From IMG/VR virus record IMGVR_UViG_3300025450_000013: a stretch of DNA of 64,000 nt; one strand, given 5' to 3'. This stretch comes from a virus. The translations under genes and the position numbers were made by a program. The notes beneath the pieces were generated by a model. It saw only the letters and a list, made by a program, of their open reading frames with translations. It did no database searches and was not told where the DNA came from. Positions 8,236 to 34,087 of this stretch are shown here, piece by piece. Positions within the stretch are counted from its first letter, which is position 1. Each line of letters starts with the position of its first letter.

Positions 8236-9909
8236 TTATAACCTAGGATCCCAGTTATCATGTGTGTAAAGGCCTTCTTTTTCAGTAGTTAACCATCTAT
8301 CTCCACTGGGGTCCTTTTGATCAGGAAAAGGATCATCTATACCATTATCAATAAAACCAAAAGGAACATTCTCCACATCTTGGAGGTATTCTAGTTCTTT
8401 TTGTAGAACATGACGTATATCATTTGAAACGGTTTCTTTAAATAGTTTCTGTGCAGTTAACCATCCAAAGTGAACCAAAGTCATAGCAAGGTCGTCATTT
8501 GACCCTTCCTCTGCCATGAAGGTTTTCTTATTAGCAGAAAATGAAAATAACTCGGTAATACTATCTTCATCATTAAGAATGAGTTTATCATTCTCTACTA
8601 ATGTCTTTAAGTTAGCACAACCAATCATTTTGGATTGTGCCGTTATCCTGAGACCAAAGGCCAGTTTATTTTTACCAGCAGCAAAACCACTGGATGCCTG
8701 TGTTCCCTGTTTACCTTTTGCTTGAAACTTTAAAAGATTTTCGTAGTTCAATTCAAAGTGTAAAATGTCGGCCACTTGTAAACCTATTGAATTTATTTCA
8801 ATAAGAACAAATGCTTCGTTATAAGTTGTAGCGGCTGAATAGATAACCGCTGGTAGAAGCATCGGGCTAATCTCGTTATTACGGTATTTAGCAACCTGTC
8901 TATATGGTATTTCTGTAACATCAAATATAGAAAATGCTGAATAATCTAGACCTTGACCTTCAGACACATCTGCGGTTAGAACATATGTGTGCTTTGGAAT
9001 AGGTTCTTCAAATATATCCATACATTCCATTCTACGAATAGGTTCTTTCCAGTGTAATGCTGCTAGCTTAGCACCGTTGATAAGAGTATTAGATGAACCT
9101 AAAAACTCACAACCAAACTCTTGATCAAACTGACGTTGACTTGTGTTTCTTATAGTTTCTTCGGCCCAGGCCTGGTCACGCCCGGGTACCATAGACCAGT
9201 GTATCTCAATAGGAATGTAGGTGCTAGTTTTATCAACTGCCTTTGTCCACATTTTATAGAACAAGTTCATTCCATTTGGTGTTGATACTATAACAACTTT
9301 AGAAGTTTTACCAGAAGAGATGGTAGGATAGGTTGAGTTAAAGAACTCTTCAGCGATGTTATTAGGTACGAACGCAAACTCGTCCAAAAAGATTAAGTTG
9401 AACGAGAAACCACGGACAGAACTACCAGAGGTGGAATCTGCTAGGACTCTTGACCCATTGGCCAGATATATAGAACCTTTGTTCCATTCTTTGATACCTT
9501 GCTTGAGAAACATAGGAAGATACTCAAACGCTAGTTTCAGTTTACCTAGCAACTCACGGGCCGTAGGTGCACGGTTAGCAAGGATAGCAACCACAAAATT
9601 TTCGTTGAATAATACTTGATGTAGGATGTAGGCTACACTGGTAGTTGATTTACCAACCTGTCGTGGTAGTTTGCAGATAGAGAAACGATTAGCATGAAAT
9701 GTTTCTAGCATACGCTCCTGGAAGTCCCACATGTCAAATGGAATCAAACCACGGTCAACGTTGATGATACGAATATATTTACGAGCGAAGTAAACTGGAT
9801 CTTCCGCACACTTTAGGTATTCATCAAATTCTGTTTGTGTAAATGAATGACGATATTGTTCGTTGGGAAGATTAGGATTATTTTGATAACTATACGGTGT
9901 CCTTGCCAT
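8236..9909 (-). CDS. gp17: Terminase large subunit
   Basis: Walker A PRQVGKST, Walker B IFLDEFAF, STPNGMN, nuclease DVSEG..DYS and DDLAM. Confidence 0.98.
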   Translation of the reverse strand: MARTPYSYQNNPNLPNEQYRHSFTQTEFDEYLKCAEDPVYFARKYIRIINVDRGLIPFDMWDFQERMLETFHANRFSICKLPRQVGKSTTSVAYILHQVLFNENFVVAILANRAPTARELLGKLKLAFEYLPMFLKQGIKEWNKGSIYLANGSRVLADSTSGSSVRGFSFNLIFLDEFAFVPNNIAEEFFNSTYPTISSGKTSKVVIVSTPNGMNLFYKMWTKAVDKTSTYIPIEIHWSMVPGRDQAWAEETIRNTSQRQFDQEFGCEFLGSSNTLINGAKLAALHWKEPIRRMECMDIFEEPIPKHTYVLTADVSEGQGLDYSAFSIFDVTEIPYRQVAKYRNNEISPMLLPAVIYSAATTYNEAFVLIEINSIGLQVADILHFELNYENLLKFQAKGKQGTQASSGFAAGKNKLAFGLRITAQSKMIGCANLKTLVENDKLILNDEDSITELFSFSANKKTFMAEEGSNDDLAMTLVHFGWLTAQKLFKETVSNDIRHVLQKELEYLQDVENVPFGFIDNGIDDPFPDQKDPSGDRWLTTEKEGLYTHDNWDPRL

Positions 9910-10339
9910 CTTCTTCTTTCTTTTTCTTTATGGCAGACAATAACTCGGCTGCCGAACCAACAAATACAGCCTGTTCTACATTAATGGAATCAGGATTCTT
10001 CTTACGTGGATCGGAGTCCGGATCAGGACCTTTAAGGTCTTTGGTCATTTTCTGGAGTTGATATAGGTCTTTTGTGGTTTCACCAACGGTCTTGATTAGA
10101 GTAGAGACAACCTCAAAACCTCTTGCGGATTCTTGTTGTCGTGCAATCTGTGAGATTTCTTCAATAGCATCATTACCTTTTTCAATAAGGTTTCTGAGAA
10201 CTCTTCTGGCTAATAGATAATCTTCTTCGGCATCCGAATGAGTTTGTGGAGGTTCATACGGCATTATCTCCTGCTTTGGTACAGCAGGAGTTTCATGGTC
10301 AATGCCTAAAGCATCAGATAAGTTTTTTTCAAGTCCCAT
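9890..10339 (-). CDS. gp16: Terminase small subunit
   Basis: EDY..AR..L..LIEKG, R.FEV, VFVGSAAELL; overlaps the gp17 start. Confidence 0.92.
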   Translation of the reverse strand: MGLEKNLSDALGIDHETPAVPKQEIMPYEPPQTHSDAEEDYLLARRVLRNLIEKGNDAIEEISQIARQQESARGFEVVSTLIKTVGETTKDLYQLQKMTKDLKGPDPDSDPRKKNPDSINVEQAVFVGSAAELLSAIKKKKEEDGKDTV

Positions 10340-10344
10340 AATGT

Positions 10345-11517
10345 CTACTCTTTATTTAAAATGATGTTGATCATAGTATCGCCTGTGCCTGTAGCAGATA
10401 CCTTATATATCAAATCGAAATCTTTTGTTACAATTTTATATCTACCAATCTTATCTAGTAATATTTCTAGATAGGCAATCATTAGTTCTTTTGATATAGC
10501 AAGAGCAATACAAGAATGGACTCCATGACCCCATGCCAAATGGCCTGAGGTATCTCTATGTATATCAAACTTGTCAGGATCAGTAAACTTATTAGGATCT
10601 CTATTAGCAGAATCCAAACAAACGGCCACTCTATCTCCAGGTTTTAGATCAACACCATGTATAGTGATTTTTTCAGTTGTGGTTCTGGTAAATCTTCCTG
10701 TAGGAGTATTGAATCTTAGAGATTCGTTTATAGCAAAAGGAATAAGAGATTTATCTTTCAATAATATGTCTAGTTTGTTTTCTCTATATAGGTCCAATGT
10801 AAGAAACTGTAATGCTGATATCAATGAACCAGCACCAGATATAGTAGGAGCACCTGTGAATAGTGATGTTTTAGATTGATCTTTTAAAATAGGATCATTA
10901 AAAGTTTTTAAAAATTCGTTATACACACCAGGACCTTTAGAAGGTGTATTTCCATATATTACATTATCCAACACTCTATATTTAATGCTTAAATTACGAC
11001 TTCTTTCTTCAAAATTTTCAATATGATCCGAATAAACCGCATGTTGACTACATTCTTGTGTTTCTGATATAATATTTTTGACATAATCTTTTTCTAAAGG
11101 AAAATTTAAAATTTCCGCAATAGCCCATGATGCTAGTTCTTTTGTAATTTCCGAAACGTTTAATTGTGTTTGACCTTCAAAAAACTCAATTGCTTTTTTG
11201 GAAAACAAATCAACAACTCTCTTTATGTTGTCTTTGGTATAAGCATTTTTTAAAAGGTTTTTGTATTCGTTATGCAAAGGATTATCGCTCGTACCTAAGG
11301 TATGACCAAATCTAGGAGGATAATCAAAAGGTAAATTGCCTTTTGCTGATGAGAAAATCTCTGGATTACTCAGTATATAATAGACATCATCATATCTGGT
11401 TATGACATAAAGGTTATACTTTTCACTCCAATATGCTGTCTGACTATTTCGGAGTTCTTTGTATATGCTATGTTTGTTTAATAGCCATTCTCCGGATTGT
11501 GGTTCAAACATCACCAT
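10345..11517 (-). CDS. Cytochrome P450
   Basis: YVITRYDDV, DNP.H, K-helix ESLR, SANRDP..F.DPDKF, heme motif HLAWGHGVHSCIA; likely start 11517 (ORF track 11544). Confidence 0.93.
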   Translation of the reverse strand: MVMFEPQSGEWLLNKHSIYKELRNSQTAYWSEKYNLYVITRYDDVYYILSNPEIFSSAKGNLPFDYPPRFGHTLGTSDNPLHNEYKNLLKNAYTKDNIKRVVDLFSKKAIEFFEGQTQLNVSEITKELASWAIAEILNFPLEKDYVKNIISETQECSQHAVYSDHIENFEERSRNLSIKYRVLDNVIYGNTPSKGPGVYNEFLKTFNDPILKDQSKTSLFTGAPTISGAGSLISALQFLTLDLYRENKLDILLKDKSLIPFAINESLRFNTPTGRFTRTTTEKITIHGVDLKPGDRVAVCLDSANRDPNKFTDPDKFDIHRDTSGHLAWGHGVHSCIALAISKELMIAYLEILLDKIGRYKIVTKDFDLIYKVSATGTGDTMINIILNKE

Positions 11518-12955
11518 TTTTTCTCTCCGAATCAATAAATTCAAGTAACTTATCTCTATCTGGTTTTACAGCAACCGTTACAAAAGAATAGTTTTTCATA
11601 TACAAAACACTTTTTAGTTCAACTTCGGAATTATATATTTCTTTTATAATACTTTTAACTTCTTCTTCTTGACCAACAAGTTCTTTACTATCCGTAACAA
11701 TATAAAGTTCATTATAGATTTCATCCACTACAACCTCAAATCTATTTCTAGAACAAAACTTTTCTGCCTTTTCTATTATATCCAATGGATTTATTTCAAT
11801 ATCATTAATTTTTCTTAATTTATTTTTTCTAATGAAATATAAACCGTCTTCCTTTTCATCTACTATATCTTCGGTTATAACTCTTTTACCGTTCGGTAGA
11901 TCAACTGTAAGTAGCCCATCAATTTGTTTTGTATCATAGAAACCGGTGGTTGGTTTACCTAAAAACAAAGGATTAAAATTTTCTGTGGTCTTGTCTATGT
12001 AAGGAACAAGCAATGGTCCACCTGTCTCAGAACAACCAAATGCACTAATGATTTTCTTTAGTTTACCTTCTTTGATAACTTTTAACCACTTTGGGTTTAT
12101 AAATGATACAACTATGATAGTGGTGTCTGGTAAACCAATATCATCTTTTTCTATAGAATCAATGATAGAATCGGTAATAGATGCGTTTGGAGATAATAGT
12201 TTGGTGATATCACGATCTTTAGCAGTCAAAAAGATATAATAAGGATATCCTTTGTCTGCTTCTACTAAGTGTTGAACAGAAAGATAATGTGTCTTGCACT
12301 TACGAATAGATGGAAGATATAACACACTAAGAGAAGCACCATGGTTTATAGAAGACATATGGAATACGGCATCATTATTTTCCAGTTCCATGGGGTGCCA
12401 GTTATAACTACAAAGACCATAAATGTATTCATGGTTATGATATATTAGTTTTGGATCACCGGTGGTTCCACTACTATTACATAAAAGTATATCATCTCCT
12501 GGTCTAGCCCACACAGGGGTTTCATAAGAACATTTTAAAGAATTGGTTAAGTTCCATTCTTTTGTAATACAAATAACTTTATCTGAGTTTTTAATATAAT
12601 GTTGTATGGTTAGATCAAATGCATACATTGTATTTTTATCATCATAACAAACAAAAATATCCAAAGGCATATGTGCTTTTGCTTTTGGTTTAAATGTTTC
12701 GTTTGGTGAATGAAATCTATGTAAGACGGTAAGTTTTAATCCTAACTCAAATATGGCAAAAAGCAATGCTGTATAAAAAATATCGGTAGGTAAAAGTGTG
12801 ACGCCTATTTTATGACCTCTTTTAGCACCACATTCTATTAATTTATATTTACAATAGTCTATTATTCTGCAAAGACCATCTTTATCATATTTTTGGCCAT
12901 AACAGTAAAAAATTGCATCATCATTAATCCATTGTCTAGTAACAATTTTATACAT
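11504..12955 (-). CDS. Adenylate-forming (AMP-binding, ANL superfamily) enzyme
   Basis: P-loop SSGTTGDPK, FGCSETGG, TED, R...KINDIEINP, terminal VKPDR lysine. Confidence 0.85.
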   Translation of the reverse strand: MYKIVTRQWINDDAIFYCYGQKYDKDGLCRIIDYCKYKLIECGAKRGHKIGVTLLPTDIFYTALLFAIFELGLKLTVLHRFHSPNETFKPKAKAHMPLDIFVCYDDKNTMYAFDLTIQHYIKNSDKVICITKEWNLTNSLKCSYETPVWARPGDDILLCNSSGTTGDPKLIYHNHEYIYGLCSYNWHPMELENNDAVFHMSSINHGASLSVLYLPSIRKCKTHYLSVQHLVEADKGYPYYIFLTAKDRDITKLLSPNASITDSIIDSIEKDDIGLPDTTIIVVSFINPKWLKVIKEGKLKKIISAFGCSETGGPLLVPYIDKTTENFNPLFLGKPTTGFYDTKQIDGLLTVDLPNGKRVITEDIVDEKEDGLYFIRKNKLRKINDIEINPLDIIEKAEKFCSRNRFEVVVDEIYNELYIVTDSKELVGQEEEVKSIIKEIYNSEVELKSVLYMKNYSFVTVAVKPDRDKLLEFIDSERKNGDV

Positions 12956-13172
12956 TATTTAATTTATCTTTAAGATCCTGTATAAGAGTTTGGAATTGTT
13001 GTTTTTGATCATCGGTTAATTTATCATAATCAAAACCAGATTCGGTTATATTATTTGCTAGAAAAAAAGGTTCAAATATACTCTGAAGTAATGACTTGTC
13101 AACCCAGTTGTTATTAAAAGGGCACCAAACATAATTAGGTCCTGGAGAAGGAGGTCTTTTGGTATTTGTCAT
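12948..13172 (-). CDS. Small hypothetical protein
   Basis: 74 aa, coupled to neighbours (4-bp gap upstream, 8-bp overlap downstream). Confidence 0.6.
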   Translation of the reverse strand: MTNTKRPPSPGPNYVWCPFNNNWVDKSLLQSIFEPFFLANNITESGFDYDKLTDDQKQQFQTLIQDLKDKLNNV

Positions 13173-13176
13173 ATTA

Positions 13177-13836
13177 TTAACTCCAACTAATGTTTACGTA
13201 ACCGTTTCCACCATTACCACCGTTACCACCACCAGCATTACCACCTCCACCACCACCTCCAGCACCAACTACTACACTTAAATATGTATTCCATGCTGGA
13301 TATCCAGGTGTTGCAATATAAGTCCAAGTTTTAACAGCAAGCCCACCTGCTCCCCCTGGTACAGAAGGTCCTGTTCCGTTACCTGAACCACCGTATCCAC
13401 CGTTAAATGCACCACCTGTATCATTACTATCACCACCTGAAGCAGTACCAAGACCACCTCCACCCAAACTAGGTTGTGATCCACCACCTTGCCCACCATT
13501 TGCTATTACACCGTCAAAGATACTTGCGGTACCATCACCTCCACCGGATCCTGAATACCAATATATGAAAGCGGTTGAACCACCTCCACCGCCTCCTCCA
13601 CCACCAGCTACGGTAACACTTAAAGTTTTGTAGGCAGGAATTAAAAAAGAATAGGTACCAGGAGTAGTAAATGATTGAGAACCTGCAACAGGTTTACCAA
13701 CTGCTTGTGATAGTGATATTTTACCAGATGCAGAACCTAAAAGATATCTAACATTAGGATCACTCATAGAGATTTGAGTAATGCCATTTTTAACAATACT
13801 TGCAATTTGACTCATAGATGGGATAGAGATTGGCAT
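13177..13836 (-). CDS. Glycine-rich fibre-tip protein (gp38-like adhesin)
   Basis: Short helical N-terminus (ISMSD..VR.L.G..SG.ISLS...GK) then GGGGG runs separated by loops; directly after a chaperone-bearing fibre, as gp38 follows gp37. Confidence 0.65.
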   Translation of the reverse strand: MPISIPSMSQIASIVKNGITQISMSDPNVRYLLGSASGKISLSQAVGKPVAGSQSFTTPGTYSFLIPAYKTLSVTVAGGGGGGGGGSTAFIYWYSGSGGGDGTASIFDGVIANGGQGGGSQPSLGGGGLGTASGGDSNDTGGAFNGGYGGSGNGTGPSVPGGAGGLAVKTWTYIATPGYPAWNTYLSVVVGAGGGGGGGNAGGGNGGNGGNGYVNISWS

Positions 13837-13840
13837 TGTA

Positions 13841-15271
13841 TTATCCTATCTTAGATTCAAGTGCTTCAATTTTCTTTTGTTGCTCTTTAATGGCTTCAAT
13901 TAATAAAACGATTATTTTTTCATATTTGACAGCTTTTATACCGTTTTCTCTTACAGCTACGGCTTCTGGAAGGACTCTTTCAATTTCTTGTGCAATAACA
14001 CCAACATCATGTTTACGAACAAAGTATCCGTCTTCACCACCTTTTTCTTTAATGTAATCATCCGTCCAATCAAATTCCACACCACGGATCTTCTTAACTT
14101 TATTAATAGCATTTTCAATAACTGTCACATTTTCTTTAAGTTTTATATCAGATCCATAATATGCAGTAATATCATTTGAGGCCCAAATTTGATTTAGACT
14201 CCAGAATCCACCAGTGTTGAAAAGACCTATATTAGTTCCATTTGTTCTTATATAGACAGGTGTGTTTATATCTGTTCCTAAACTAAGTGCTCCACCATTT
14301 ACAACAACTGATCCCCACTGTGTTGACTGATATTGGTCAGTGAATTGTAGAATACCAGAACCACTTGAACCCGGATAAATTCTAATACCGTAGTTTCCAC
14401 CACCTGTTCTGAAAACACCACCATTACCATCAATATAACTATAAGTACCAAAAGTTGCTGAACTATCAACAGATAAAGATCCTTGAACTCTAAATGATGT
14501 ATAAGCAATACCATTATATTTTGGAATTGCTGCTGATCCTAAACTGTAAGCTGCATTGGCCCAAGCATATGCTCCACTCGCAACAGTACCGACATAATTG
14601 GAATTATATATTGCAGCATTTGCTTGGTTGAATCCTGCATTAGCAACACCAAATGCGTATCTTAATTGATAACCAATATTATTGGCATAGTTATATGCTG
14701 AAGTTGTATTAGCAGTAAGACCGGATACTGCACTTACAGTTAATCCTAAAGTGCTATTAGATTGATCAAATGAACTTGAAACATAATATTGCAATGCATT
14801 TGCTTGATCAAAAGCGGCCGCTGCATTGATTGTAGCACCATAGGCGATAGAATTTATAGAATTTGCAAATGTTCCTACTGAATTAACGGAACCAAATGCA
14901 CTATTAGATGTTAAATAAGCAACGTTTAATTTATCACTTGTTGATGAGATTAAATCATATGAAGCATTAGCAGCTGCCCATGCGGCATTAGCAGTATTGG
15001 CAATAACAAATGATGTTTGTGCGGCAAAGTAAATTCCATTGGCCCAATTAAAAGCAGCATTAGCAGTATTATAAGCCTCGACGGTCTTATTCTGAATTTC
15101 ACCACCAAAGTTAATAAAGATGCCTGATATATTTTCTAAATTAGCAGTAAGATTAGCGACAGAAGTATAAAGTTCACTAAAGTTATTATCAACCTTAGTA
15201 AAAGATACTCTCATTACATCGCCGGTACCGTCATTAGGAACTGTACCTATGTTAATATATTGTTGTGCCAT
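13841..15271 (-). CDS. Tail fibre with C-terminal intramolecular chaperone (peptidase S74)
   Basis: N-terminal INIGTVPNDGTGD..R..F.K...NF.ELY baseplate anchor; SDIKLKENV...GVIAQE..AVKYEK..LLIEAIKE. Confidence 0.9.
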   Translation of the reverse strand: MAQQYINIGTVPNDGTGDVMRVSFTKVDNNFSELYTSVANLTANLENISGIFINFGGEIQNKTVEAYNTANAAFNWANGIYFAAQTSFVIANTANAAWAAANASYDLISSTSDKLNVAYLTSNSAFGSVNSVGTFANSINSIAYGATINAAAAFDQANALQYYVSSSFDQSNSTLGLTVSAVSGLTANTTSAYNYANNIGYQLRYAFGVANAGFNQANAAIYNSNYVGTVASGAYAWANAAYSLGSAAIPKYNGIAYTSFRVQGSLSVDSSATFGTYSYIDGNGGVFRTGGGNYGIRIYPGSSGSGILQFTDQYQSTQWGSVVVNGGALSLGTDINTPVYIRTNGTNIGLFNTGGFWSLNQIWASNDITAYYGSDIKLKENVTVIENAINKVKKIRGVEFDWTDDYIKEKGGEDGYFVRKHDVGVIAQEIERVLPEAVAVRENGIKAVKYEKIIVLLIEAIKEQQKKIEALESKIG

Positions 15272-15297
15272 TGTGATTTTTCCGCTGTTTGTTTACT

Positions 15298-15305
15298 TAT
15301 TTATA
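15298..15305 (-). promoter_or_regulatory. T4-type late promoter TATAAATA
   Basis: Exact consensus; heads a gap-free run from the fibre at 15271 through P450 to gp16/gp17. Confidence 0.75.
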
Positions 15306-15311
15306 CCACTA

Positions 15312-16571
15312 TTAGGTCAGACCAGTTCCTGACATTACAAATGTATTACCACTAGATCCAATACCTTGAACGCAAATTATATGTGCTAGGCCGTTTGCAG
15401 CAAGAGTTCTATTACCAGTGGTAAGACCACCTGCTCTTAATGATACGTTTGTATTCTGTGTAATGGTAATTGATGATGATGTATTGTTAAAAATATACAT
15501 TGTATTACCAGCAGAGAATACAGCATTAGGAACAAAAATTGTTCCTGTAGCAGCAACTACGGAACCAACATCAGAAATAGTTAAACCATATGGGCTCGCT
15601 TTAGAAGAAACGAAACGATTATTTGACAGTGCGGTGTTTGCCACACCAAAGGCCGCATTAATAACACCAAAGGCACTATTAACTGCCGTATAAGTTGTAT
15701 TGGTAAGACCAAAAGCAGCAATAGTGTTGGTTGATACACCATTAGCAAAACCAAATGCCGAACTTAAAGTTGATAGAACATTTTGACCTGCAACAAACAA
15801 TGAACTAGAAACGTTTGTTGATCCTGCAACATCAAGTGTATATTGTGGATTAGTGGTACCTATACCAACATTAGCACCACCTGCAAAGTCCTGAATACGC
15901 ATTGCTTCATTGACTGCAAGAGAACCGCCTACGAAGAAATTTATAAACTTGAAAGTAGAAGTTGAATTAGCCGTACCAATTGAAAGATTGCCATCAGATG
16001 TGTAGAGATAACCATCATTATTAGCATTAATAGTCCATGTTGGTAGGCTATACTTAGAACTATTAATACCAAGATCAATATAGTTTGTGGTATCTGTACC
16101 ATTATCTGCGGTTGCAACAATGTCTGTGGAAGAGTTTACACCAGCATAAGCATTACGAATCTGTAATTGGACTGTATTGTTTTGTGTACCTTCAGCATCA
16201 ATAATATCACCAAAGAGAGCAATTGGAGTTACAGAACCTTGAACGATTGTTAGTGGTGCGGCCGCTGTTGTTGTTCCTATACCGACGTTACCTGTTGGAA
16301 AATATAGAGTTCCACTGAACTTAGAACCTGATGTATTTGGTAAAGCAGTATTGGCAATACCATATGCATTATTTGTCAGAGTATAAACGTTTGCAATTAA
16401 AGAACCGTTTACATCTAATCCTATTAATAAGTCTGAACTACTAGCAAAAAGAGATGATGTAAAACCATATAATTCATTAAAATTAGCATTTACTTTGATA
16501 AACGCATCTCTTAATTTATCACCGGTACCATCATCGGCTGTTGTTCCTGTATTAATTACTTGTTCCGACAT
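15312..16571 (-). CDS. Tail fibre protein
   Basis: INTGTTADDGTGDKLRDAF.K.N.NF.ELY anchor, GNVGIGTT repeats. Confidence 0.85.
   Translation of the reverse strand: MSEQVINTGTTADDGTGDKLRDAFIKVNANFNELYGFTSSLFASSSDLLIGLDVNGSLIANVYTLTNNAYGIANTALPNTSGSKFSGTLYFPTGNVGIGTTTAAAPLTIVQGSVTPIALFGDIIDAEGTQNNTVQLQIRNAYAGVNSSTDIVATADNGTDTTNYIDLGINSSKYSLPTWTINANNDGYLYTSDGNLSIGTANSTSTFKFINFFVGGSLAVNEAMRIQDFAGGANVGIGTTNPQYTLDVAGSTNVSSSLFVAGQNVLSTLSSAFGFANGVSTNTIAAFGLTNTTYTAVNSAFGVINAAFGVANTALSNNRFVSSKASPYGLTISDVGSVVAATGTIFVPNAVFSAGNTMYIFNNTSSSITITQNTNVSLRAGGLTTGNRTLAANGLAHIICVQGIGSSGNTFVMSGTGLT
15630..15755. repeat. 126-bp exact dispersed repeat, copy 1
   Basis: Identical to 37204-37329 by direct comparison. 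Confidence 0.9.
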
Positions 16572-19265: not shown

Positions 19266-19283
19266 TATTTAGGATTATTTACC
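19266..19283 (-). promoter_or_regulatory. Tandem late-promoter-like motifs upstream of gp13
   Basis: GGTAAATA and CCTAAATA. Confidence 0.5.
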
Positions 19284-19884
19284 TGAACTTAGGACCTTCT
19301 ACCCATATAACAATTGACTTACGAATACCTAAGTGTACCGGTTTCACTCTATGGATCAGAAAAGATGGAAATGCTATAATCTTACCTCTAGTCATTTCAG
19401 GTGTTCTTGCATCTTCTTCCATTCCAAGGTTTATTTGAAATTCACCCCCTGAGAAATGAACTTGTGGTTCTGATAGTAACATAACCAAAGTTAATTTTCT
19501 GACAGAATCGGTACAATCATTATCACCTAATACCGTATCCATATGCCAGTCATACATTCCTTTATTCAAAGAATCATAAACAGTGTATTGAAAATCTTTA
19601 TAACCATAAAGGTCAAATCCAAAATAAGTTGAATTTATTCTATCAATCACACCGTTAAATTTATCAAAAATCCAATAATTCTCTTCATTTCTGCTGATAA
19701 ATTTTACCTTAGATTTTCTATGCTGTTCACAATCTTCACCTTTACCGACTGTTGTGGATCTATGTAATTCTTCTTTTTGACATAATTTTTCAATGTCATT
19801 CAATTCATTTTCAACAAATAAATTTTCCCACAAAATATAACTAGGTATATTTTTTCTAAAATTCACAGGATCATTTGAAATCAT
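19279..19884 (-). CDS. 2OG-Fe(II) oxygenase (prolyl 4-hydroxylase/PKHD-like)
   Basis: YDWHMD, RKLT, F.GGEF, FPSF..HRV.PV..G.RKSIV.W; start 19884 by TAATG coupling (ORF track 19956). Confidence 0.92.
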   Translation of the reverse strand: MISNDPVNFRKNIPSYILWENLFVENELNDIEKLCQKEELHRSTTVGKGEDCEQHRKSKVKFISRNEENYWIFDKFNGVIDRINSTYFGFDLYGYKDFQYTVYDSLNKGMYDWHMDTVLGDNDCTDSVRKLTLVMLLSEPQVHFSGGEFQINLGMEEDARTPEMTRGKIIAFPSFLIHRVKPVHLGIRKSIVIWVEGPKFR

Positions 19885-20345
19885 TATGTATTGGCCACCA
19901 CCATTTTGTTTGATATCATGTAATTTATTACGTTGTTTACCACATTTGGCATACATTTATTTGCCACATCATTAATTTCATCAAGTTGTGTTTTAAGTAT
20001 TAGATTGTTAGCATCATTTGCTGAATAACTATTTACATTGTATAAAAATGTATTAACATTTGTAAAATTAACAACTGTATTAACTTTTGGTGTAATAGCC
20101 CAAAAAGGAGTTGCTGATTGTATAAGATTTAAAATATCATTAGATGAAGTATTTGCAGTATCATATATTGTTAAATTTGTGTCGGTAGAACAATGAATAG
20201 GATAACCATTACTGGTTAACATAATATCCCCACGAACATCAATGGAGGTTGATAGTGTATTTTCAGAAACCTTATCACTCCAATATCTAACAGTAAATGT
20301 ATTTTCCTCTGGGAAAACATCTATAATTCTAAAAAATACGTTCAT
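19884..20345 (-). CDS. Hypothetical protein (possible adhesin partner/chaperone)
   Basis: 153 aa between the Gly-rich adhesin and the oxygenase. Confidence 0.55.
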   Translation of the reverse strand: MNVFFRIIDVFPEENTFTVRYWSDKVSENTLSTSIDVRGDIMLTSNGYPIHCSTDTNLTIYDTANTSSNDILNLIQSATPFWAITPKVNTVVNFTNVNTFLYNVNSYSANDANNLILKTQLDEINDVANKCMPNVVNNVINYMISNKMVVANT

Positions 20346-20355
20346 TTTATCCCCT

Positions 20356-22104
20356 TTAGACCTTAGGTCCGTTGATTGTACCCATATTTATATACTTAAT
20401 ATTTGAGTTACCACATATTGCGGATCCTTGAGTACCTGGTGAACCTGATGCTCCCGAAGATCCTGGTGAACCTGGTGATCCTTGAGAACCGGCATTTCCT
20501 GGATGCCCTGTTGCTCCTGGTGAACCGGCATTTCCTGGTTGACCTGATGGCCCAGAATTTCCTGCTGATCCTGGGGATCCAGCATTTCCTGGTTGACCTG
20601 AATGCCCGGCCCCACCTGTTGATCCGGCTGAACCGGCTGGACCAGGTTGACCAGAATGACCAGCTGGTCCTCCACCACCACCGCCTCCTGGATATCCTGG
20701 TTGATTTAAGTCACCGCCTCCACCACCACCATTTGGACCGGATCTACCAAAATGATGGCTGCATCCGTGATGGTTAGCAGGTTGATGACTTGCTCCGTGA
20801 TAACATCCTGAAGCGTGGTGCCCATTATATCCACAATGGGCACAATTTACTTGGCCAGCACCTTGATGATTTGCGCTATAATGTGCTGCTGGTTGGTGCT
20901 GACCCCATCCACCACCTTGATGAGAATGACCGGGAGGTCCATGAGGACCACCACAAGCACTACCGCCTGGGCCTGGAGGTATACCTGCACCACCTCCACC
21001 GCCGCCTCTATGACCGGAAGCTCCGCCGCCGCCGCCTCCAGGTCCTCCTGGTCCAGAATTTCCACCTGAACCACCTGGTCCGGCACTTCCTCCAGAACCA
21101 CCTGGTCCTGCATTTCCACCTGAACCACCTGATCCAGCATAACCGCCTACGCCACCAGGTCCGGCATTTCCACCTGAACCACCTGGACCTCCCGGACCCG
21201 CAGCTCCACCTGGTCCTCCAGATCCACCAGGACCAGATGATCCTCCAGAACCTCCTGGACCAGATGATCCTCCACTTATTGTTGATGTATTGTTGAGAAT
21301 TATACTAACACCATATACGGCACATGCTTTAAGTGATACACCACCAGGTTGCCCGGTGCCTCCTGTACCACCAGGTTGCCCGGTGCCTCCTGCACCTCCT
21401 GGTTGACCACATCCACCTCGGACACCTGAACCTCCCGGTTGACCACAACCACCTAGGCCGCCTGAACCTCCTGGTTGGCCTGCACCTCCTGGTTGACCAC
21501 AACCACCTCGGCCACCTGGTTGACCATAACCACCTGGTTGACCGTGACCACCTGTACCTCCTGTGCCTCCTGGAGTACCGCCTCCACCATGGTGGCCTCC
21601 ACCGAACCATCCGGGTCCGTGACCTCCACCACCACCAGCACCAAATGCACCTGTACCACCTGGTTGACCGTGTGCTCCTGTGTATCCTGGTTGACCGTGT
21701 GCTCCTGTACCACCTGGGTTACCGTGACGACCTGCTCCACCTGGTTGACCGTGTGACCCTGTACCACCTGGTGTACCTACAGATCCTGAACTACCTGTAG
21801 CACCTGGATTTCCTGTAGAACCTACAGATCCTGGAGCACCTGGTGTGCCTGTAGCACCTGTAGTACCAGCTGCACCTGCTATGGTTGCTGAATTTTTAAT
21901 ATAAATTAGAGTACCTGGCCTCCAACTGGAACCTGTCTGTAAAGCAGGTGTTGAAGTTGAGGTACTTCCTATGTTAGCATTGATAAAAACAAATATATTA
22001 CCAGGGTAGGATGGGCTACCTGATTGATTGTAGAGATTAACATTATTAGTCGCGGAACTAATATTAATAATTTTTGTTGGTCTGGTAATAGGAAACAAGA
22101 ACAT
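20356..22104 (-). CDS. gp38-like adhesin with long Gly-X-Y (collagen-like/polyglycine II) arms and His/Cys-rich head
   Basis: IYIKNSATIAG and IILNNTSTISGG strands and C-terminal AICGNSNIKYINMGTINGPKV resemble the gp38 scaffold; four Gly-triplet tracts. Confidence 0.7.
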   Translation of the reverse strand: MFLFPITRPTKIINISSATNNVNLYNQSGSPSYPGNIFVFINANIGSTSTSTPALQTGSSWRPGTLIYIKNSATIAGAAGTTGATGTPGAPGSVGSTGNPGATGSSGSVGTPGGTGSHGQPGGAGRHGNPGGTGAHGQPGYTGAHGQPGGTGAFGAGGGGGHGPGWFGGGHHGGGGTPGGTGGTGGHGQPGGYGQPGGRGGCGQPGGAGQPGGSGGLGGCGQPGGSGVRGGCGQPGGAGGTGQPGGTGGTGQPGGVSLKACAVYGVSIILNNTSTISGGSSGPGGSGGSSGPGGSGGPGGAAGPGGPGGSGGNAGPGGVGGYAGSGGSGGNAGPGGSGGSAGPGGSGGNSGPGGPGGGGGGASGHRGGGGGGAGIPPGPGGSACGGPHGPPGHSHQGGGWGQHQPAAHYSANHQGAGQVNCAHCGYNGHHASGCYHGASHQPANHHGCSHHFGRSGPNGGGGGGDLNQPGYPGGGGGGGPAGHSGQPGPAGSAGSTGGAGHSGQPGNAGSPGSAGNSGPSGQPGNAGSPGATGHPGNAGSQGSPGSPGSSGASGSPGTQGSAICGNSNIKYINMGTINGPKV

Positions 22105-22143: not shown

Positions 22144-22159
22144 TACTATGGAGTTTGCT

Positions 22160-23329
22160 ATGAAAATTGGTCTTATAGGTGATCATATTACCGATATTTA
22201 TATATATGGGAAAATGACTAGGTTTTCACCGGAGTCTCCTATTCCTATCTTTGACATAGAGAGAGAAGAAAGTCGTTCTGGCGGTGCTTCCAATGTCAAT
22301 AACAATCTAATGGCCCTTGGTGCTTCTGTTGATTACCACTGTGACAAAATAAACTATTCTATCAAAAAACGATATGTCTGTGACGGCCACATAATGTTCC
22401 GTGTGGATGCCGATAAGACCAGCACCGTTGATCCATGTCTTGCCGAATTTACCGAAGAAACCAAGTATGTCATCCTTTCCGACTATGGTAAGGGTATTTT
22501 GACATATAGTTCTGAAGTTATTGATAAACTGAAGCAAGATGGTAAGATCGTCATTGTTGATCCTAAAAGGCATATCAGTCATTATGAAGGTGCTGATATT
22601 GTCAAGATGAATGAGAAAGAATATTATCAGTTCTGCCCACAGGGAAAAGGTGCTTTAAAGTATTATGATATAGGAACTTTTGTGATAACCTTGGGTGGCA
22701 AAGGTGTTAGAATTATTAATGAAAATGGTGATACAACAATTCCAGGTCTAGGATTACAAGTATCTGATGTGACAGGCGCCGGTGATGTGTTCATTGCTGC
22801 TATGACATACTACCTAGCAAAAGGTAAAGACATATATCAGGCCTGTGATATTGCGAACAAGTATGCGGCTAAGTCCGTAACCAAGTTTGGTACCTATACA
22901 ATTACCGAAGATGATAAAAGAGAGATTGAAGGTAAGATAGTATTCACCAACGGTTGCTTTGATATTCTACACCGTGGCCACATTGAATATCTACAAAAGT
23001 CTAAAAAATTAGGAACTAAGTTAATTGTAGCTTTAAACTCAGATGAATCAGTTGCTAGACTAAAAGGCACTGTCAGACCACACAATAAGCAGGAAGATCG
23101 TAAGAGAGTATTAGAGGCTCTTGATTGTGTTGATGAGGTTATTATCTTTAATGGTGACACACCATATGAAATAATTAAAGATTTGAAGCCTGACATTATA
23201 ACAAAAGGTGGTGATTATAAGACTAAAGAAGAAGTGGTCGGGCATGATCTTGCTGAGGTCGTTATATTACCTTTTGTTGATGGATATTCTACTACTAAAA
23301 CATTGGAGTATATGAATGGAGATTGTTGA
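22160..23329 (+). CDS. hldE: Bifunctional heptose-7-phosphate kinase / heptose-1-phosphate adenylyltransferase
   Basis: R.SPE.P.P, GGASNV, ILSDYGKG, DVTGAGDVF (PfkB); VFTNGCFDILHRGH, KGGDY, FVDGYSTT; start 22160 after GGAG (ORF track 22148). Confidence 0.93.
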   Translation: MKIGLIGDHITDIYIYGKMTRFSPESPIPIFDIEREESRSGGASNVNNNLMALGASVDYHCDKINYSIKKRYVCDGHIMFRVDADKTSTVDPCLAEFTEETKYVILSDYGKGILTYSSEVIDKLKQDGKIVIVDPKRHISHYEGADIVKMNEKEYYQFCPQGKGALKYYDIGTFVITLGGKGVRIINENGDTTIPGLGLQVSDVTGAGDVFIAAMTYYLAKGKDIYQACDIANKYAAKSVTKFGTYTITEDDKREIEGKIVFTNGCFDILHRGHIEYLQKSKKLGTKLIVALNSDESVARLKGTVRPHNKQEDRKRVLEALDCVDEVIIFNGDTPYEIIKDLKPDIITKGGDYKTKEEVVGHDLAEVVILPFVDGYSTTKTLEYMNGDC

Positions 23330-23666
23330 GAAGAAATGGGGTAGAGAGATAATCTTTGCCAATAATGATAAGTATTGTGGTAAACTTCTTATACATGATA
23401 AATCCGGTTCTAAAGGTTCTATGCATTTCCATATGAAGAAACATGAGACCTTTTATGTCCAGAAAGGTATATTCAAGATACACTGGATTGAAACCAATGA
23501 TGCAAAGATACATAATACTATCCTTAGAGAAGGTGATACATGGGTCAATGAACCTGGGCAACCGCATCAGATTGAGGCTTTAGAGGACAACTCAACTATA
23601 ATCGAGGTATCTACAACACACTTTGACAATGACAGTTATAGAGTTATGCCAGGAGACGGTCAATGA
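23316..23666 (+). CDS. Cupin, sugar ketol-isomerase-like
   Basis: VEKKWGRE, YCGKLL, SMHFH..KHETFYV, PG.PH, EVST. Confidence 0.8.
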   Translation: MEIVEKKWGREIIFANNDKYCGKLLIHDKSGSKGSMHFHMKKHETFYVQKGIFKIHWIETNDAKIHNTILREGDTWVNEPGQPHQIEALEDNSTIIEVSTTHFDNDSYRVMPGDGQ

Positions 23667-23965
23667 AGTATATAATGGATATCGACGGAACAATCTGTAC
23701 CAATACTAATGGTGATTATGAGAAGGCAACTCCTTATCTAGACCGCATAGATTATATCAATCACCTATATGATAAAGGGCATGAGATACATTACTGGACG
23801 GCCAGAGGTGGTAACTCAAGGAGAGATTTATCAGAACTAACCAAAAAACAATTAAAAGAATGGGGATGCAAATACACCTCACTAAGATGTGATAAACCAG
23901 CATATGATTACTGGATAGATGACAAGGCATTTAATGATAGAGATTTCTTTGGAGTTAATTTATGA
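23663..23965 (+). CDS. Minimal HAD-family phosphatase
   Basis: DIDGTIC, WTARG, KP.YD..IDDKA. Confidence 0.85.
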   Translation: MKYIMDIDGTICTNTNGDYEKATPYLDRIDYINHLYDKGHEIHYWTARGGNSRRDLSELTKKQLKEWGCKYTSLRCDKPAYDYWIDDKAFNDRDFFGVNL

Positions 23966-24753
23966 TATTGATAACTGGTCATAAAGGATTTATCGGTCAA
24001 AACCTTGTTAATAGATTAAATGATAAACTCTTTTGCCTTTCTGATATTGACAGTTGCTTCAAAGACCTTTATTTAACACCTTGGGAAGATATAGAAGAAA
24101 TATGGCATATGGGTGCCATCTCTGATACTACTTGTACCGATTTAAATAAAATCCATACTTATAACATAGAATATACCATAAATCTATTTGAACTTGCTAT
24201 TCAATATAAGATACCAGTAAAGTATGCCTCGTCCGCGTCCGTGTATGGAAACACTAACTATCGTAGAGAGATTAATCCACTAAACTTCTATGCTATGTCT
24301 AAGGCTACTATTGATCGTTGGGTAATGGATAATTTATACAAGTTTGAATCTATACAAGGTTATCGTTTCTATAATGTATATGGTAAGCATGAAGACCATA
24401 AAGGTGGCCAGGCCAGTCCGATACATACATTCATCAAGCAGGCAAAAGAAACAGGAACGATTAAACTATTTGAAAACTCGGTTGCCTATATGAGAGACTT
24501 TATTTGGGTTGAAGATGTTATAAATTGTATGCTGTATGATAAACCAAGTGGTATATATGATCTAGGAACTGGAGTAGCAAGGTCGTTTGAAAGAGTGGCT
24601 GAAATCATAGCAGACAGATATAATGCCAAGTTAGAGTATGTTCCATTTCCAAAACACCTTGAAGACAAGTATCAATACTTCACTTGTTCATTAAATCACT
24701 TTGATCATACATTCACATCAATAGAGGAATATGTTAATGAAAGAGGAGTATAA
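23962..24753 (+). CDS. hldD: ADP-L-glycero-D-manno-heptose 6-epimerase-like SDR
   Basis: ITGHKGFIG, H.GAISDT, YASSASVYG, PLN.YA.SK, R.YNVYG..E.HKG..AS, RDFIWVEDV, YQYFT. Confidence 0.88.
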   Translation: MILITGHKGFIGQNLVNRLNDKLFCLSDIDSCFKDLYLTPWEDIEEIWHMGAISDTTCTDLNKIHTYNIEYTINLFELAIQYKIPVKYASSASVYGNTNYRREINPLNFYAMSKATIDRWVMDNLYKFESIQGYRFYNVYGKHEDHKGGQASPIHTFIKQAKETGTIKLFENSVAYMRDFIWVEDVINCMLYDKPSGIYDLGTGVARSFERVAEIIADRYNAKLEYVPFPKHLEDKYQYFTCSLNHFDHTFTSIEEYVNERGV

Positions 24754-25348
24754 AGAGATTGCACCTGGCTGGTTATGGCAGTCTAATGTCACTAGTGATC
24801 TTATGAAATATGATGAGAACTATGTAAAACCATACACTAAGTATGATGATACTCTCTCATATATTAGACTCAACTTTTGTCAAAAGTATGCCAAGTTTTA
24901 TTCGGTTCTTGATGTTGGATATGGCGACGGTAACTTTCTCAAAGTATGTAATCGTGAAGGATACAAATGTTTTGGTAATGATATATCAGGATATTCTTTA
25001 TCAGACGGAATAACTTTTACTGAAAATAGAAATATACCTGTTGACCTTGTTACGTTCTTTGATTGTATTGAACACTTTCCACAAGAAAATGTTGAAGAGG
25101 TATTAAAAGAACTAAATTGTAAGTATATCTGCATTTCGATTCCTTGGTGTCATTTTGATAATTTTGAAATATGGAAACACCGCAAGCCTAATGAACATTT
25201 CCATCATTTTGGTGTTAGAGGTGTTACTGAGTTATTGAATAGAGGTGGGTTTGATTTGATTGTTTCTGCTTCAATTGAAGATCAAGTTAGGTCAAACAAA
25301 GGCGGAATACCAAATATTTTAACTGTTATTGGAAAGAAAAGATGTTAA
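24731..25348 (+). CDS. Class I SAM-dependent methyltransferase
   Basis: VLDVGYGDGNF, FFDCIEH, EHFHHF. Confidence 0.85.
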   Translation: MLMKEEYKEIAPGWLWQSNVTSDLMKYDENYVKPYTKYDDTLSYIRLNFCQKYAKFYSVLDVGYGDGNFLKVCNREGYKCFGNDISGYSLSDGITFTENRNIPVDLVTFFDCIEHFPQENVEEVLKELNCKYICISIPWCHFDNFEIWKHRKPNEHFHHFGVRGVTELLNRGGFDLIVSASIEDQVRSNKGGIPNILTVIGKKRC

Positions 25349-26022
25349 ATTTATATTATTCGCATAGGACAGATGTTGAAAAAGCATACATTATTACAAT
25401 AAAGGGTAATAATATGTCCGAAAAATATTCAAAAAGATGTCAAGAATCGTGTAAAAATGTTGGTATGCAATATCAAGTATGGGACGCATTTGATGGAACT
25501 GGTGATGAAATAATAATACCAGAACACTCTAAGAATAATCCCATTTTTAAAATGGTGAAAATACAAGATCATCATATGACAAAAAGTGAACTTAGTTGTT
25601 TTCTTAGTCATTTAAGTTTATGGGCTAGATGTGTCGAGATAGACCAACCAATAGTTATACTTGAACATGATGCTATAATGGTAAAAAAGTTTGAAAATAA
25701 AACTAGTTATAATTCTATTGTATATCTTGGTTGTGAAATATGGGCAAAAAAAGGATCTAATATAGAAGATATTCCAATATATGGATCTGGTGGAATGAAT
25801 AATCTTTATATATATAAAGGACATGCATATTGTATAGATCCACAAGTTGCTAAGAATATGTTATCAGATGTTTTTAAGCGTGGTATATGGACAATTGCAG
25901 ATAGATTTATGAAAGCAGATTTATATAACATAACTCATCAAGGATTATATGCTTTTGAAAATAAATTTAACGATGAAGATTCTACTATAGTTCCAAGAGA
26001 GAAAGATGAATATACATGTTAG
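25342..26022 (+). CDS. Glycosyltransferase family 25-like
   Basis: AYIITI, DAFDG, E.SCFLSH..LW, IVILEHDA, HAY.I.P..AK. Confidence 0.8.
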   Translation: MLNLYYSHRTDVEKAYIITIKGNNMSEKYSKRCQESCKNVGMQYQVWDAFDGTGDEIIIPEHSKNNPIFKMVKIQDHHMTKSELSCFLSHLSLWARCVEIDQPIVILEHDAIMVKKFENKTSYNSIVYLGCEIWAKKGSNIEDIPIYGSGGMNNLYIYKGHAYCIDPQVAKNMLSDVFKRGIWTIADRFMKADLYNITHQGLYAFENKFNDEDSTIVPREKDEYTC

Positions 26023-26852
26023 ATGAAAATATGCAAAATTATTTAAGTCATATGTTTGACATGGTTAGTGATTTAAGAGACTTAAAGTTATATGAAAGAA
26101 CCAATACATCTAAGAATCCTTTAAATCATTATGGTCGTAGGGCTTTCAGTCAGTCAGACGAAGATGGTATTACACAAGAGATTATGAAACGTATAGGAGT
26201 TGATAATGGAGTTTTTGCTGAATTTGGAGTAGGATCAGGTTTAGAATGTAATACATTATTGTTAGCTGGATTAGGTTGGTCAGGGTTTTGGGTTGACGCT
26301 GGAAACATATTACCTAAAATTGAACAATCTGCAAATCCAAAATTTTCATTTTTTAAACGTCATATAACATTAAATAACGTATTAGAAACATACTTACAGT
26401 GTTTGAAATATATTAATAAAGAAGAAACAGATTTTATTTCTTTTGATTTTGAAGGTAATGATTATTATTTAATTGAGAGATTATTGCAATCTGGAGTATC
26501 TCCTAAAGTATTCGTAGTTGAATATAACGCTAAATTTATACCACCCATTGAATGGAAAGTTAAATATCATGAAAATCTAATATGGGAATATGATGATTAT
26601 TTTGGTGCTTCTCTTATGTCATATGTTAAATTGTTTGAAAAACATAATTATTTTCTTGCATGTTGTAATAGTTTTACAGGAGCAAATGCTTTCTTTATTA
26701 AAAACAAATATAAAGAATTTTTTAGTGATATTCCAAAATCAATCAATGATATTTGGGTTGAGCCTAGATATTATATTACTAAAAAGTATGGTCATAAGAG
26801 TTCTGTTAGGACTGTAGAATTGTTGCTTAATAATTTAAACTCTTGTCAATAA
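26016..26852 (+). CDS. FkbM-like methyltransferase
   Basis: FSQSDEDGI, EFGVG.G.ECNT, SFDFEGNDY, P.V.VVEYN, YFGASL, G.NAFF. Confidence 0.75.
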   Translation: MLDENMQNYLSHMFDMVSDLRDLKLYERTNTSKNPLNHYGRRAFSQSDEDGITQEIMKRIGVDNGVFAEFGVGSGLECNTLLLAGLGWSGFWVDAGNILPKIEQSANPKFSFFKRHITLNNVLETYLQCLKYINKEETDFISFDFEGNDYYLIERLLQSGVSPKVFVVEYNAKFIPPIEWKVKYHENLIWEYDDYFGASLMSYVKLFEKHNYFLACCNSFTGANAFFIKNKYKEFFSDIPKSINDIWVEPRYYITKKYGHKSSVRTVELLLNNLNSCQ

Positions 26853-28053
26853 CAGATATCCAATCACCCATCTTCTGTTGACGCCAAACAGTAACATCAG
26901 GAAACCAATCTGATTTACCTCCGTTTTCGGCAGCACACCAAGTAAAATAACCAACCACAATATCATAAAGATATGTTTTAATACCTAATGCGCCAGCAGC
27001 GACCGAAACGCTTGAACTACTGGTATAACACATTTTACACAAGCTAAGAATAGCAAGCGTATCATCCCAATCTTTTATATCTTTTGTTAAATCAATTACG
27101 CCTTCTGGACATGTTTCTGCTCCCATACAAACAGAAATTAGTGTTCCTTGGTGCTTAATCTTATCAATAAGGTATTCAATTGGTATTGTTCTCAGATCAT
27201 TTTCTGAGTGTTCTTTATCACCCGTCCAATTTAAAGCAATTAAATTGTCATACATTTTAAGTTTTTGTTTCCACTTTGCTAGATAAACTGGATTAGGTTC
27301 TAAATATTTTTCATTACCAGGTTTTTCTACTTTCAAATTAAATGGTAAACTCATAGAAGGTACCCAATAATCATATTTGATTGTTGGATCTACTGGAAAA
27401 ACTTTAAAGTTTCTTGATATAACATTCTTTAAACTATTATCAGTGTAGTAATATACAAAAGCACCCATGTCTTTTAACATAGGAATCCATCTACTGAATA
27501 TCATTTCGTCGCCAAGCCCAGCTTCTCCTATGACGCATATTTTAGATCCTTTAATATTTTGATAACCAAACCATCTATCTACATTTGGAGGAGGAAGTTT
27601 TTCATTAGTCCAAAACGCACCATTTCTTCCAATCTCCGTTTCAATAAACGCTTCTTTAAATTTACCCTTTCTGTGTAAAAACCATCCTATATCTAAGTGT
27701 TTATCCTCACATTCTATTTGATTGTTTTTGATATACTCGTAACCTTCGTCATATCTACCAAGTCTAGTTAGATATTGAGCGTATTGCCTTATATCCGTTT
27801 TATCTTTAGATTTAGTTATATCCATGTATTCTTGAAATAGTTCTAAAGATTTGTCAATTTCACAAAGATTGTAATGACAAATTGCTGAATTTTTAAGAAC
27901 ATCAGGATGTCTATATTCTAATAAATCTAATGTTAGTAGATTCTGATTAATAGACTCCCGAAACATTTTTTTATTATAATATTCTATTGATAATGATTCG
28001 GAAGCCTCAACAGATTTATTTATTTGAAAAGTATTCATCAATCGCTCTATCAA
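26827..28053 (-). CDS. TPR + GT-B glycosyltransferase (GT9-like)
   Basis: Helical N-terminus; EAGLGDEMIFSRW, DYWVPSMSLP, LNWTG, WDDTLAIL, AGALG, WFP...WRQ...GDW. Confidence 0.78.
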   Translation of the reverse strand: MIERLMNTFQINKSVEASESLSIEYYNKKMFRESINQNLLTLDLLEYRHPDVLKNSAICHYNLCEIDKSLELFQEYMDITKSKDKTDIRQYAQYLTRLGRYDEGYEYIKNNQIECEDKHLDIGWFLHRKGKFKEAFIETEIGRNGAFWTNEKLPPPNVDRWFGYQNIKGSKICVIGEAGLGDEMIFSRWIPMLKDMGAFVYYYTDNSLKNVISRNFKVFPVDPTIKYDYWVPSMSLPFNLKVEKPGNEKYLEPNPVYLAKWKQKLKMYDNLIALNWTGDKEHSENDLRTIPIEYLIDKIKHQGTLISVCMGAETCPEGVIDLTKDIKDWDDTLAILSLCKMCYTSSSSVSVAAGALGIKTYLYDIVVGYFTWCAAENGGKSDWFPDVTVWRQQKMGDWISVIDKSLNY

Positions 28054-34078: not shown

Positions 34079-34087
34079 AATTGACCT

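Follow-up and report, generated by a model that had tools for sequence, protein, structure and literature searches.

Here we report the analysis of a variable gene slot in virus record IMGVR_UViG_3300025450_000013 of IMG/VR, studied as a stretch of 64,000 nucleotides (nt), hereafter the window, that covers the half of a T4-like phage in which the virion genes lie (gp13, gp14, gp15, gp16, gp17, gp18 and baseplate genes). Between a tail-fibre and fibre-tip gene on one side and the small terminase gene gp16 on the other, the slot carries a cytochrome P450 and an adenylate-forming enzyme of the ANL superfamily. Comparison with related phages showed that the type of enzyme in this slot tracks the loop type of the adhesin encoded before it across two distant virion backbones. 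The source phage occurs in freshwater metagenomes, its longest contig reaching 174 kb. In order of transcription, with lengths in amino acids (aa), the features of the locus are:

15298 to 15305, minus strand: late promoter of T4 type, TATAAATA, 27 nt 5' of the fibre start at 15271
13841 to 15271, minus strand: tail fibre, 476 aa, with a gp9/10-like N-terminus and a C-terminal S74 chaperone (Pfam PF13884, E 4e-14; PHROG tail-fibre families)
13177 to 13836, minus strand: glycine-rich fibre-tip protein, 219 aa, of gp38-like organisation; loop type STAF, common to locus L119
12948 to 13172, minus strand: open reading frame (ORF) of 74 aa, the C-terminal half of a fibre/adhesin assembly-type protein
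11504 to 12955, minus strand: ANL adenylate-forming enzyme, 483 aa (Pfam AMP-binding, E 5.5e-12)
12449 to 12475, minus strand: P-loop motif of the ANL enzyme, residues 161-169
11564 to 11566, minus strand: Lys464 of the ANL enzyme, motif A10
10345 to 11517, minus strand: cytochrome P450, 390 aa (Pfam p450, E 1.3e-14)
10822 to 10839, minus strand: P450 I-helix SGAGSL, residues 227-232, with the acid lost (Gly230) and the alcohol kept (Ser231)
10510 to 10512, minus strand: P450 heme ligand motif, Cys336
9890 to 10339, minus strand: small terminase gp16 (PHROG 445, E 3e-30), the downstream anchor of the variable slot

These genes are tightly packed: gaps of 4 bp separate fibre from tip and tip from the 74-aa ORF, which overlaps the ANL gene by 8 bp; the ANL gene overlaps the P450 gene by 14 bp, and 5 bp separate the latter from gp16. 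A preliminary description of this DNA, made from the sequence alone, had given the same genes, order and minus-strand spacing and had placed them under the promoter at 15305..15298, and both statements were confirmed. A P450 start at TTG 11544 was rejected, as ATG 11517 has a Shine-Dalgarno sequence (GGAG) upstream and yields the 390-aa protein. Although the raw count of nine copies of TATAAATA is close to the chance value of about seven, its placement identifies it as a real late promoter, because seven of the nine minus-strand copies lie 23-91 nt 5' of a gene start. Since these copies precede start codons, late transcription running through both enzyme genes is a reasonable inference. No convincing terminator was found between TATAAATA and gp17 in a scan that performed at chance level, as did a sigma-70 promoter scan of the locus. 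The locus is not an assembly artefact, because the same order recurs in other ENA, JGI and Logan contigs: five carry it whole and a sixth stops inside the P450 gene. One Logan contig matches positions 9800-15400 without a difference and may be the source sample. Contigs of four sequencing runs contained no within-population variants in the P450 and ANL genes, and none of the sequencing runs listed for the phage was an RNA run.

The tip protein consists of glycine runs alternating with variable loops, and its gene lies behind that of the distal fibre. This is the organisation of the gp38 adhesins of Straboviridae, whose gene follows an S74-type fibre and whose proteins combine conserved termini with glycine-rich motifs and variable loops (PMC12032242). 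The tip protein differs from gp38 in having no significant sequence or fold match to it (no PF05268 or PDB match; template modelling (TM) score of 0.25 in the atlas), and its nearest relatives are unnamed viral Gly_rich_2 proteins. By position and organisation it is probably an adhesin, and probably picks the host. The 74-aa ORF behind it aligns to the C-terminal half of a 170-aa gene (alignment A3) and is 43% identical to the L119 protein. Full-length proteins of this assembly type measure 170-190 aa and follow the tip gene in all relatives, both with enzymes and without them (L154, L166), with weak leads to the tail-assembly chaperones Caudo_TAP and Phage_tail_APC; a protein search with the 74-aa domain returned only itself. 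Being a fragment of such a gene, found elsewhere without enzymes and devoid of a carrier serine motif, the ORF is a poor fit to a carrier or substrate role. Its assignment as an "aroma-sacti" domain (NCBIfam, E 0.004) was rejected after alignment with the full-length relatives. A role of the small assembly domain as an enzyme recruiter was likewise rejected, given its enzyme-free occurrence in L154 and L166 and an ANL gene in L120 that comes without the domain.

The closest relatives of the P450 sit alone in the slot, in the order fibre, glycine-rich tip, 170-aa gene, P450 and then gp16 or gp13, where gp16 is 82-93% identical in close relatives. Their adhesins belong to one loop type (DNHN-x-YG, PQQG and mostly APQN). 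Adhesins were searched by DNA loop patterns, protein alignment being defeated by low complexity. All 12 IMG/VR contigs with the DNHN-x-YG pattern carry a P450 two genes downstream. The same pattern gave 11 matches in metagenomes, of which three were chance; among the eight true matches the P450 is visible in seven, and the remaining contig is cut short. The STAF loop pattern returned three matches in IMG/VR, all of them chance. A P450 locus retrieved later, blind to its adhesin, proved to have the same DNHN loop. As a control, a search with the assembly gene recovered five other loop types, none of them followed by an enzyme gene, and one such enzyme-free block belongs to a 94%-complete genome that shares the window's backbone and lacks both enzymes. 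Counted by type, a P450 lies behind nine of ten DNHN adhesins versus none of seven others (Fisher p 0.0004, the DNHN adhesins being related and the events not independent). The link to the tip gene raised in the preliminary description is real and stronger than was guessed. The states with and without enzyme both occur in two backbones; gp15 identity to the window is 77-89% in one and 40-42% in the other.

The P450 and the ANL enzyme do not form a conserved joint pathway; they travel as separate passengers. No other locus, whether among 69 with the P450 or among 51 with the ANL (duplicates counted), has both, and the partner gene is missing from the nearest relatives of each. A complete 349-kb genome encodes the P450 and no ANL, and a complete 172-kb genome encodes the ANL and no P450, neither of these two genomes having the pair; the positive controls that accompanied these absence calls were detected. 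A functional pair of P450 and ANL is accordingly not supported, as the combination did not occur outside the window phage.

Within this framework the window phage appears to be a recombinant. Its adhesin has no DNHN loops and carries the STAF-type set instead, as does that of L119, where the adhesin gene is directly followed by the assembly gene and then by the ANL nearest to that of the window (70% identity). The window ANL forms a four-member subclade with three others (SH-like approximate likelihood ratio test, SH-aLRT, 99), all behind the assembly gene. The window P450 nests among the DNHN-linked P450s of its own backbone (100/100) on a terminal branch of 0.43. It has changed about twice as fast as its sisters, with 67 versus 26 private changes in a relative-rate comparison (chi2 18) and no acceleration in the backbone genes (gp15, 16 versus 14; gp16, 3 versus 4). 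The window P450 departs from its relatives at positions invariant in all 119 of them (E65D, A76T) and has its charge reversed at 155; its private changes showed no significant concentration in the regions that contact substrate (p 0.41, Fisher test). The simplest history that we infer is a cassette replacement, in which a STAF adhesin, truncated assembly gene and ANL would have displaced a DNHN adhesin in front of the resident P450, which would since have evolved about twice as fast.

The P450 belongs to a large family. A list of 119 relatives, 49-66% identical, came from a protein search, and 42 loci are present in IMG/VR; no match was found in 50,697 records of cultured phages, and a scan of prokaryotes, one genome per species, gave no match above 26% over the full length. 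Against 1.84 billion representatives, full-length matches drop from 39-55% (the clade) to about 30%. The clade, of at least 120 sequence clusters, is fully supported in the tree (100/100), where its stem measures about 1.5 changes per site, and every context examined was phage; a few NCBI-sourced homologues may be either genuine cellular genes or phage contigs assigned to bacterial bins. A phage-specific clade, for which the preliminary description had proposed a phylogeny, was recovered, and the nearest homologues are not bacterial operons. P450s are rare among cultured phages, as the preliminary description states, but not among uncultured ones. Elsewhere, family members lie near RNase H, AhpC/D or, in jumbo phages, fatty-acid desaturases, PP-loop-like proteins and TctC. 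The jumbo-phage cluster of L006 (1632-12075) comprises two fatty-acid desaturases, a fatty-acid hydroxylase, PP-loop-like and cupin-like proteins, TctC and a clade P450; it recurs in L001, L020, L024, L027-L030, L040-L042 and L045, sometimes with a radical SAM enzyme. One clade member, protein P0204, seems to lack the heme Cys region and is possibly degenerate.

Membership of a CYP family is usually drawn at 40% identity, and under this rule the clade of the window P450 is a new family with CYP203A as the nearest. Its best match among solved structures is the CYP203A enzyme P450-T2 (PDB 8FBC; E 3.7e-39), which is also the best fold match (TM 0.84; AlphaFold, Foldseek) of a model with a mean local confidence (pLDDT) of 87 and a predicted TM score (pTM) of 0.90, and which shares its B-C loop pattern and the Ser at the alcohol position. 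The two differ in that identity is about 25-30% (25% structural identity to P450-T2, with full-length matches outside the clade at about 30% or less), and that the phage clade lacks the acid Glu, has a long stem and has been seen on phage contigs only. CYP203A enzymes such as CYP203A1 of Rhodopseudomonas palustris bind substituted aromatics (PMC7780096). The P450s known from other viruses, namely giant viruses, Ranid herpesvirus 3 and Mycobacterium phage Adler (Lamb et al. 2019, cited in PMC9405906), resemble the window P450 in that no redox partner is encoded, host partners being presumed. The window P450 is of a lineage unrelated to them, with structural identity of 10-17% to the giant-virus enzymes and 21% to the one phage P450 in BFVD. 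It differs from them also in belonging to a large clade of T4-like and jumbo phages, all uncultured, some members of which are tied to a tail adhesin. As stated in the preliminary description, no ferredoxin-like or carrier-like ORF is present in the window by motif scan, which covered 64 kb of a 174-kb phage, and PF00111 had no match in five related records.

Both enzymes are intact and under purifying selection, and look active. Pairwise ratios of nonsynonymous to synonymous change (dN/dS) to relatives are 0.11-0.25, with synonymous sites near saturation, and not near one as relaxed selection would give. The ExxR motif (E265/R268, residues 265-268) and heme Cys336 of the P450, which the preliminary description had reported as intact, are present and invariant in alignment A1. 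The I-helix is altered throughout the clade: the acid is absent in 120 of 120 members (Ser 70, Gly 45, Ala 5), and the alcohol is Ser in every one (Ser231 in the window). SGAGSL aligns with AGVES of 8FBC, Ser231 lying opposite its Ser and Gly230 replacing its Glu, so that only half of the canonical acid-alcohol pair described earlier as lacking is actually gone. Non-standard proton delivery is plausible, because the acid-less, Ser-keeping pattern recurs in PtmB and the tryptophan-diketopiperazine dimerases, where the I-helix has a Val-Ser pair and the substrate serves as base (PMC11573659). These enzymes differ from the window P450 in that no cyclodipeptide synthase lies near it and no specific sequence kinship was seen. 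The non-standard chemistry suggested earlier is consequently upheld as far as substrate assistance or coupling fits the clade-wide loss of the acid, but the motif alone is no sign of cross-linking; the His-Tyr cross-linker P450Blt (biarylitide) retains its acid, Glu238 (PMC12002111). The arrangement does not resemble that of P450-modified ribosomally synthesised and post-translationally modified peptides of biarylitide type, in which a gene for a short precursor peptide lies by the P450 gene: among ORFs of 40 aa or more the sole small one is the assembly-gene fragment, and the gaps are 4-5 bp.

The ANL enzyme is a superfamily member by fold and by motifs A3, A5, A7 and A10. Its model (pLDDT 89.7) matched ANL enzymes only, at 13-17% identity; with AuaEII (4WV3), FscC, MatB and ACSM2A it shares the two-domain fold (TM about 0.7), A3, the A4 His, A5, the A7 Asp and the A10 Lys, and it differs from them in its altered A8 and in having no carrier protein. 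The P-loop Ser-Gly, Lys169, His205-Gly206, Gly307, Glu310, Asp363 and Lys464 are invariant in 42 relatives, which agrees with the intact P-loop and catalytic Lys of the preliminary description. About 70 relatives at 36-70% identity and 44 IMG/VR loci were found, none in cultured phages; the lineage occurs only in phage contexts so far. The window protein itself reached no subfamily cut-off of NCBIfam. Other family sites are near PhoH, GroES or a tyrosinase, and in two T4-like phages (L004 4489-5928, L005 3866-5296) only a few genes separate the tyrosinase from the ANL relative. Gly206 replaces the Asp of amino-acid-activating domains, which makes an acyl or aryl acid the probable substrate. 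The protein is unlike non-ribosomal peptide synthetase adenylation domains in that this A4 Asp is absent, no carrier motif is found in the window and TIGR01733 scores 21 bits against a cut-off of 317. Acyl- and aryl-CoA (coenzyme A) ligases have an Arg and a Gly in motif A8, and in mutants of Acs and 4-chlorobenzoate-CoA ligase bulk at this Gly blocks CoA entry. By motif alignment the phage enzyme has Lys377 for the Arg and Asp385 for the Gly, both in 41 of 42 sequences, and because of Asp385 the acceptor is likely to be other than CoA. Two near-invariant residues, Cys159 and Cys308, lie inside active-site motifs.

The reading that we favour, with about even confidence, is that the P450 and the ANL are independent, host-specific tailoring enzymes of a host-range module. 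The slot would be the accessory position of that module, which comprises fibre, glycine-rich adhesin, assembly gene and an optional enzyme, and both enzymes would be phage-adapted and made late in infection. Each would be useful in the host selected by its adhesin type and so be inherited with it. The P450 may oxidise a small host molecule of aromatic, phenolic or acyl nature with electrons from a host ferredoxin; the proton relay normally given by the lost acid would then come from its substrate or from the retained Ser. The ANL may adenylate a carboxylic acid that lacks an alpha-amino group, and a non-CoA acceptor would probably receive it, so that no carrier protein would be needed. A small-molecule or envelope substrate of the P450 is more likely than the adhesin itself, because pocket motifs are nearly equal in adhesin-linked P450s (L018, L019) and a desaturase-cluster P450 (L020), and the complete genome of the latter type has neither DNHN loop nor assembly gene. 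As to purpose, our leading guess is that the enzymes would alter a component of the host envelope or its precursor, on the receptor side of the adhesin, so that progeny would not be trapped on debris and rivals would be excluded, much as with Llp next to the receptor-binding gene of T5; a metabolic benefit tied to the host is about as likely. Several points weigh against this reading. The activity, substrates and expression of both enzymes are predictions, and the best match of the terminase among cultured phages, at 54% identity, is too distant to point to a host. L049 combines a DNHN-like adhesin with an ANL of a separate branch and not a P450, the kinship of the DNHN adhesins means that the Fisher value may reflect very few independent events, and the STAF-ANL link is known from two phages. 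Most members of both families reside in other genome regions with no adhesin nearby.

A narrower proposal, which we advance only tentatively, is that each adhesin type is paired with a cognate enzyme acting chemically on the adhesin-receptor interface, whether through changes to the adhesin loops (cross-linking or hydroxylation by the P450, acylation by the ANL) or through remodelling of the host receptor late in infection. We would give similarly guarded credence to its corollary, that the slot is an enzymatic counterpart of the T5 receptor-binding and receptor-blocking module, built from a phage-only CYP and a probably CoA-independent ANL family. In T5 and BF23, oad or hrs is accompanied by llp, which encodes no structural protein; with each change of receptor type the partner gene is replaced by an unrelated one, and Llp is a lipoprotein that plugs the receptor (PMC4728585). 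The likeness lies in a partner gene that adjoins the receptor-binding gene and is exchanged with it; the difference is that the partners here are predicted cytoplasmic enzymes, and the relation is one of analogy, not homology.

It is unlikely that the association reflects hitchhiking only, a generally useful gene having landed behind an adhesin and spread with it, through recombination breakpoints that fall upstream within the glycine runs and downstream within gp16/gp13, so that adhesin type would be functionally irrelevant. The scatter of the families over unrelated sites (desaturase cluster and RNase H, AhpC/D, PhoH and tyrosinase regions) is consistent with this, as are RNase H-region P450s that branch among or beside the adhesin-linked ones, the kinship of DNHN adhesins and the proposal that gp38 glycine-rich motifs are recombination hotspots (PMC12032242). 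However, the link has outlasted P450 divergence to 56-67% identity and P450 transfer between backbones, with no loss observed. P450 and adhesin trees conflict for L015 and L016, with moderate support, which suggests exchange of P450s within the slot while the DNHN partner was kept.

Still less probable is tailoring of the virion, the enzyme acting on its cognate adhesin or fibre prior to assembly: under this reading the P450 would cross-link or hydroxylate His, Tyr or Asn of the DNHN-x-Y loop, the ANL would acylate the STAF-type tip, and the window P450, having lost its target, would be drifting or changing. Late co-transcription with fibre and tip is compatible with this, and so are the fixation of normally hypervariable loops in P450-linked adhesins, the I-helix shared with C-C and C-N coupling P450s (PMC11573659), the E65D, A76T and position-155 changes of the window P450, and an ANL with no A8 Gly and two active-site Cys. 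It is opposed by the near-identical pocket motifs in a complete genome with no such adhesin, by the different enzyme class behind the DNHN-like loop of L049, by the acid kept in the cross-linker P450Blt (PMC12002111) and by the lack of enrichment of window-specific changes in substrate regions. A joint pathway, with the ANL activating a substrate that the P450 then oxidises or cross-links and the 74-aa protein perhaps as carrier or precursor, is improbable: overlapping reading frames under one promoter, the intactness of both genes and an acceleration of the window P450 that could be adaptation to a new partner are outweighed by a pair confined to one phage, nearest relatives that lack the other gene, an ORF that is an assembly-gene fragment with no carrier serine, and few-base overlaps that are common throughout the operon.

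Other genes of the window and its relatives deserve mention. A 2-oxoglutarate-Fe(II) oxygenase gene (19279-19956, minus strand) lies directly upstream of gp13, a position kept in close relatives, whereas the oxygenase-like gene of L019 and L168 comes after the P450. In several close relatives (L010, L011, L139 and L163) an endonuclease-like insert interrupts or precedes the large terminase gene near gp16/gp17. A 582-aa collagen-like glycine-rich protein with a His-rich segment (20356-22104, minus strand) has its own TATAAATA at 22202. Opposite the late strand, among fibre genes, a seven-gene cluster (22148-26852, plus strand) has the look of heptose/lipopolysaccharide-type glycan synthesis: it encodes a PfkB and cytidylyltransferase fusion (HldE-like), a cupin, a small HAD-like protein, an NAD epimerase, a methyltransferase, a GT25 glycosyltransferase and a 278-aa protein of no assigned kind. 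Between this cluster and an RCC1 protein lie genes for a TPR-containing glycosyltransferase-like protein and a 572-aa methyltransferase-domain protein (26827-29734, minus strand). The RCC1-repeat protein itself (29789-34582, minus strand; 1430 aa, 15 repeats) comes after a tail-assembly-like gene, and a 324-aa protein of near-identical tandem repeats of about 41 aa (35458-36429, minus strand; NHL/beta-propeller-like) has no PHROGs family match.

We found no description in the literature of either enzyme family or of the link between enzyme and adhesin, and the literature found names a single bacteriophage P450, that of phage Adler (PMC9405906). Both proteins are new variants of well-known superfamilies and the logic of the module has a known analogue, but its enzymatic form appears undescribed. 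The result adds two new phage-only enzyme families with altered catalytic motifs, among them a P450 clade of at least 120 clusters that is long separated from cellular P450s and has lost the catalytic acid throughout. Co-inheritance with tail-tip loop types provides a testable handle on the role of "auxiliary metabolic" enzymes, pointing to host range and surface chemistry and less to general metabolism, and loop and enzyme type together offer a marker by which uncultured freshwater phages may be grouped by host.

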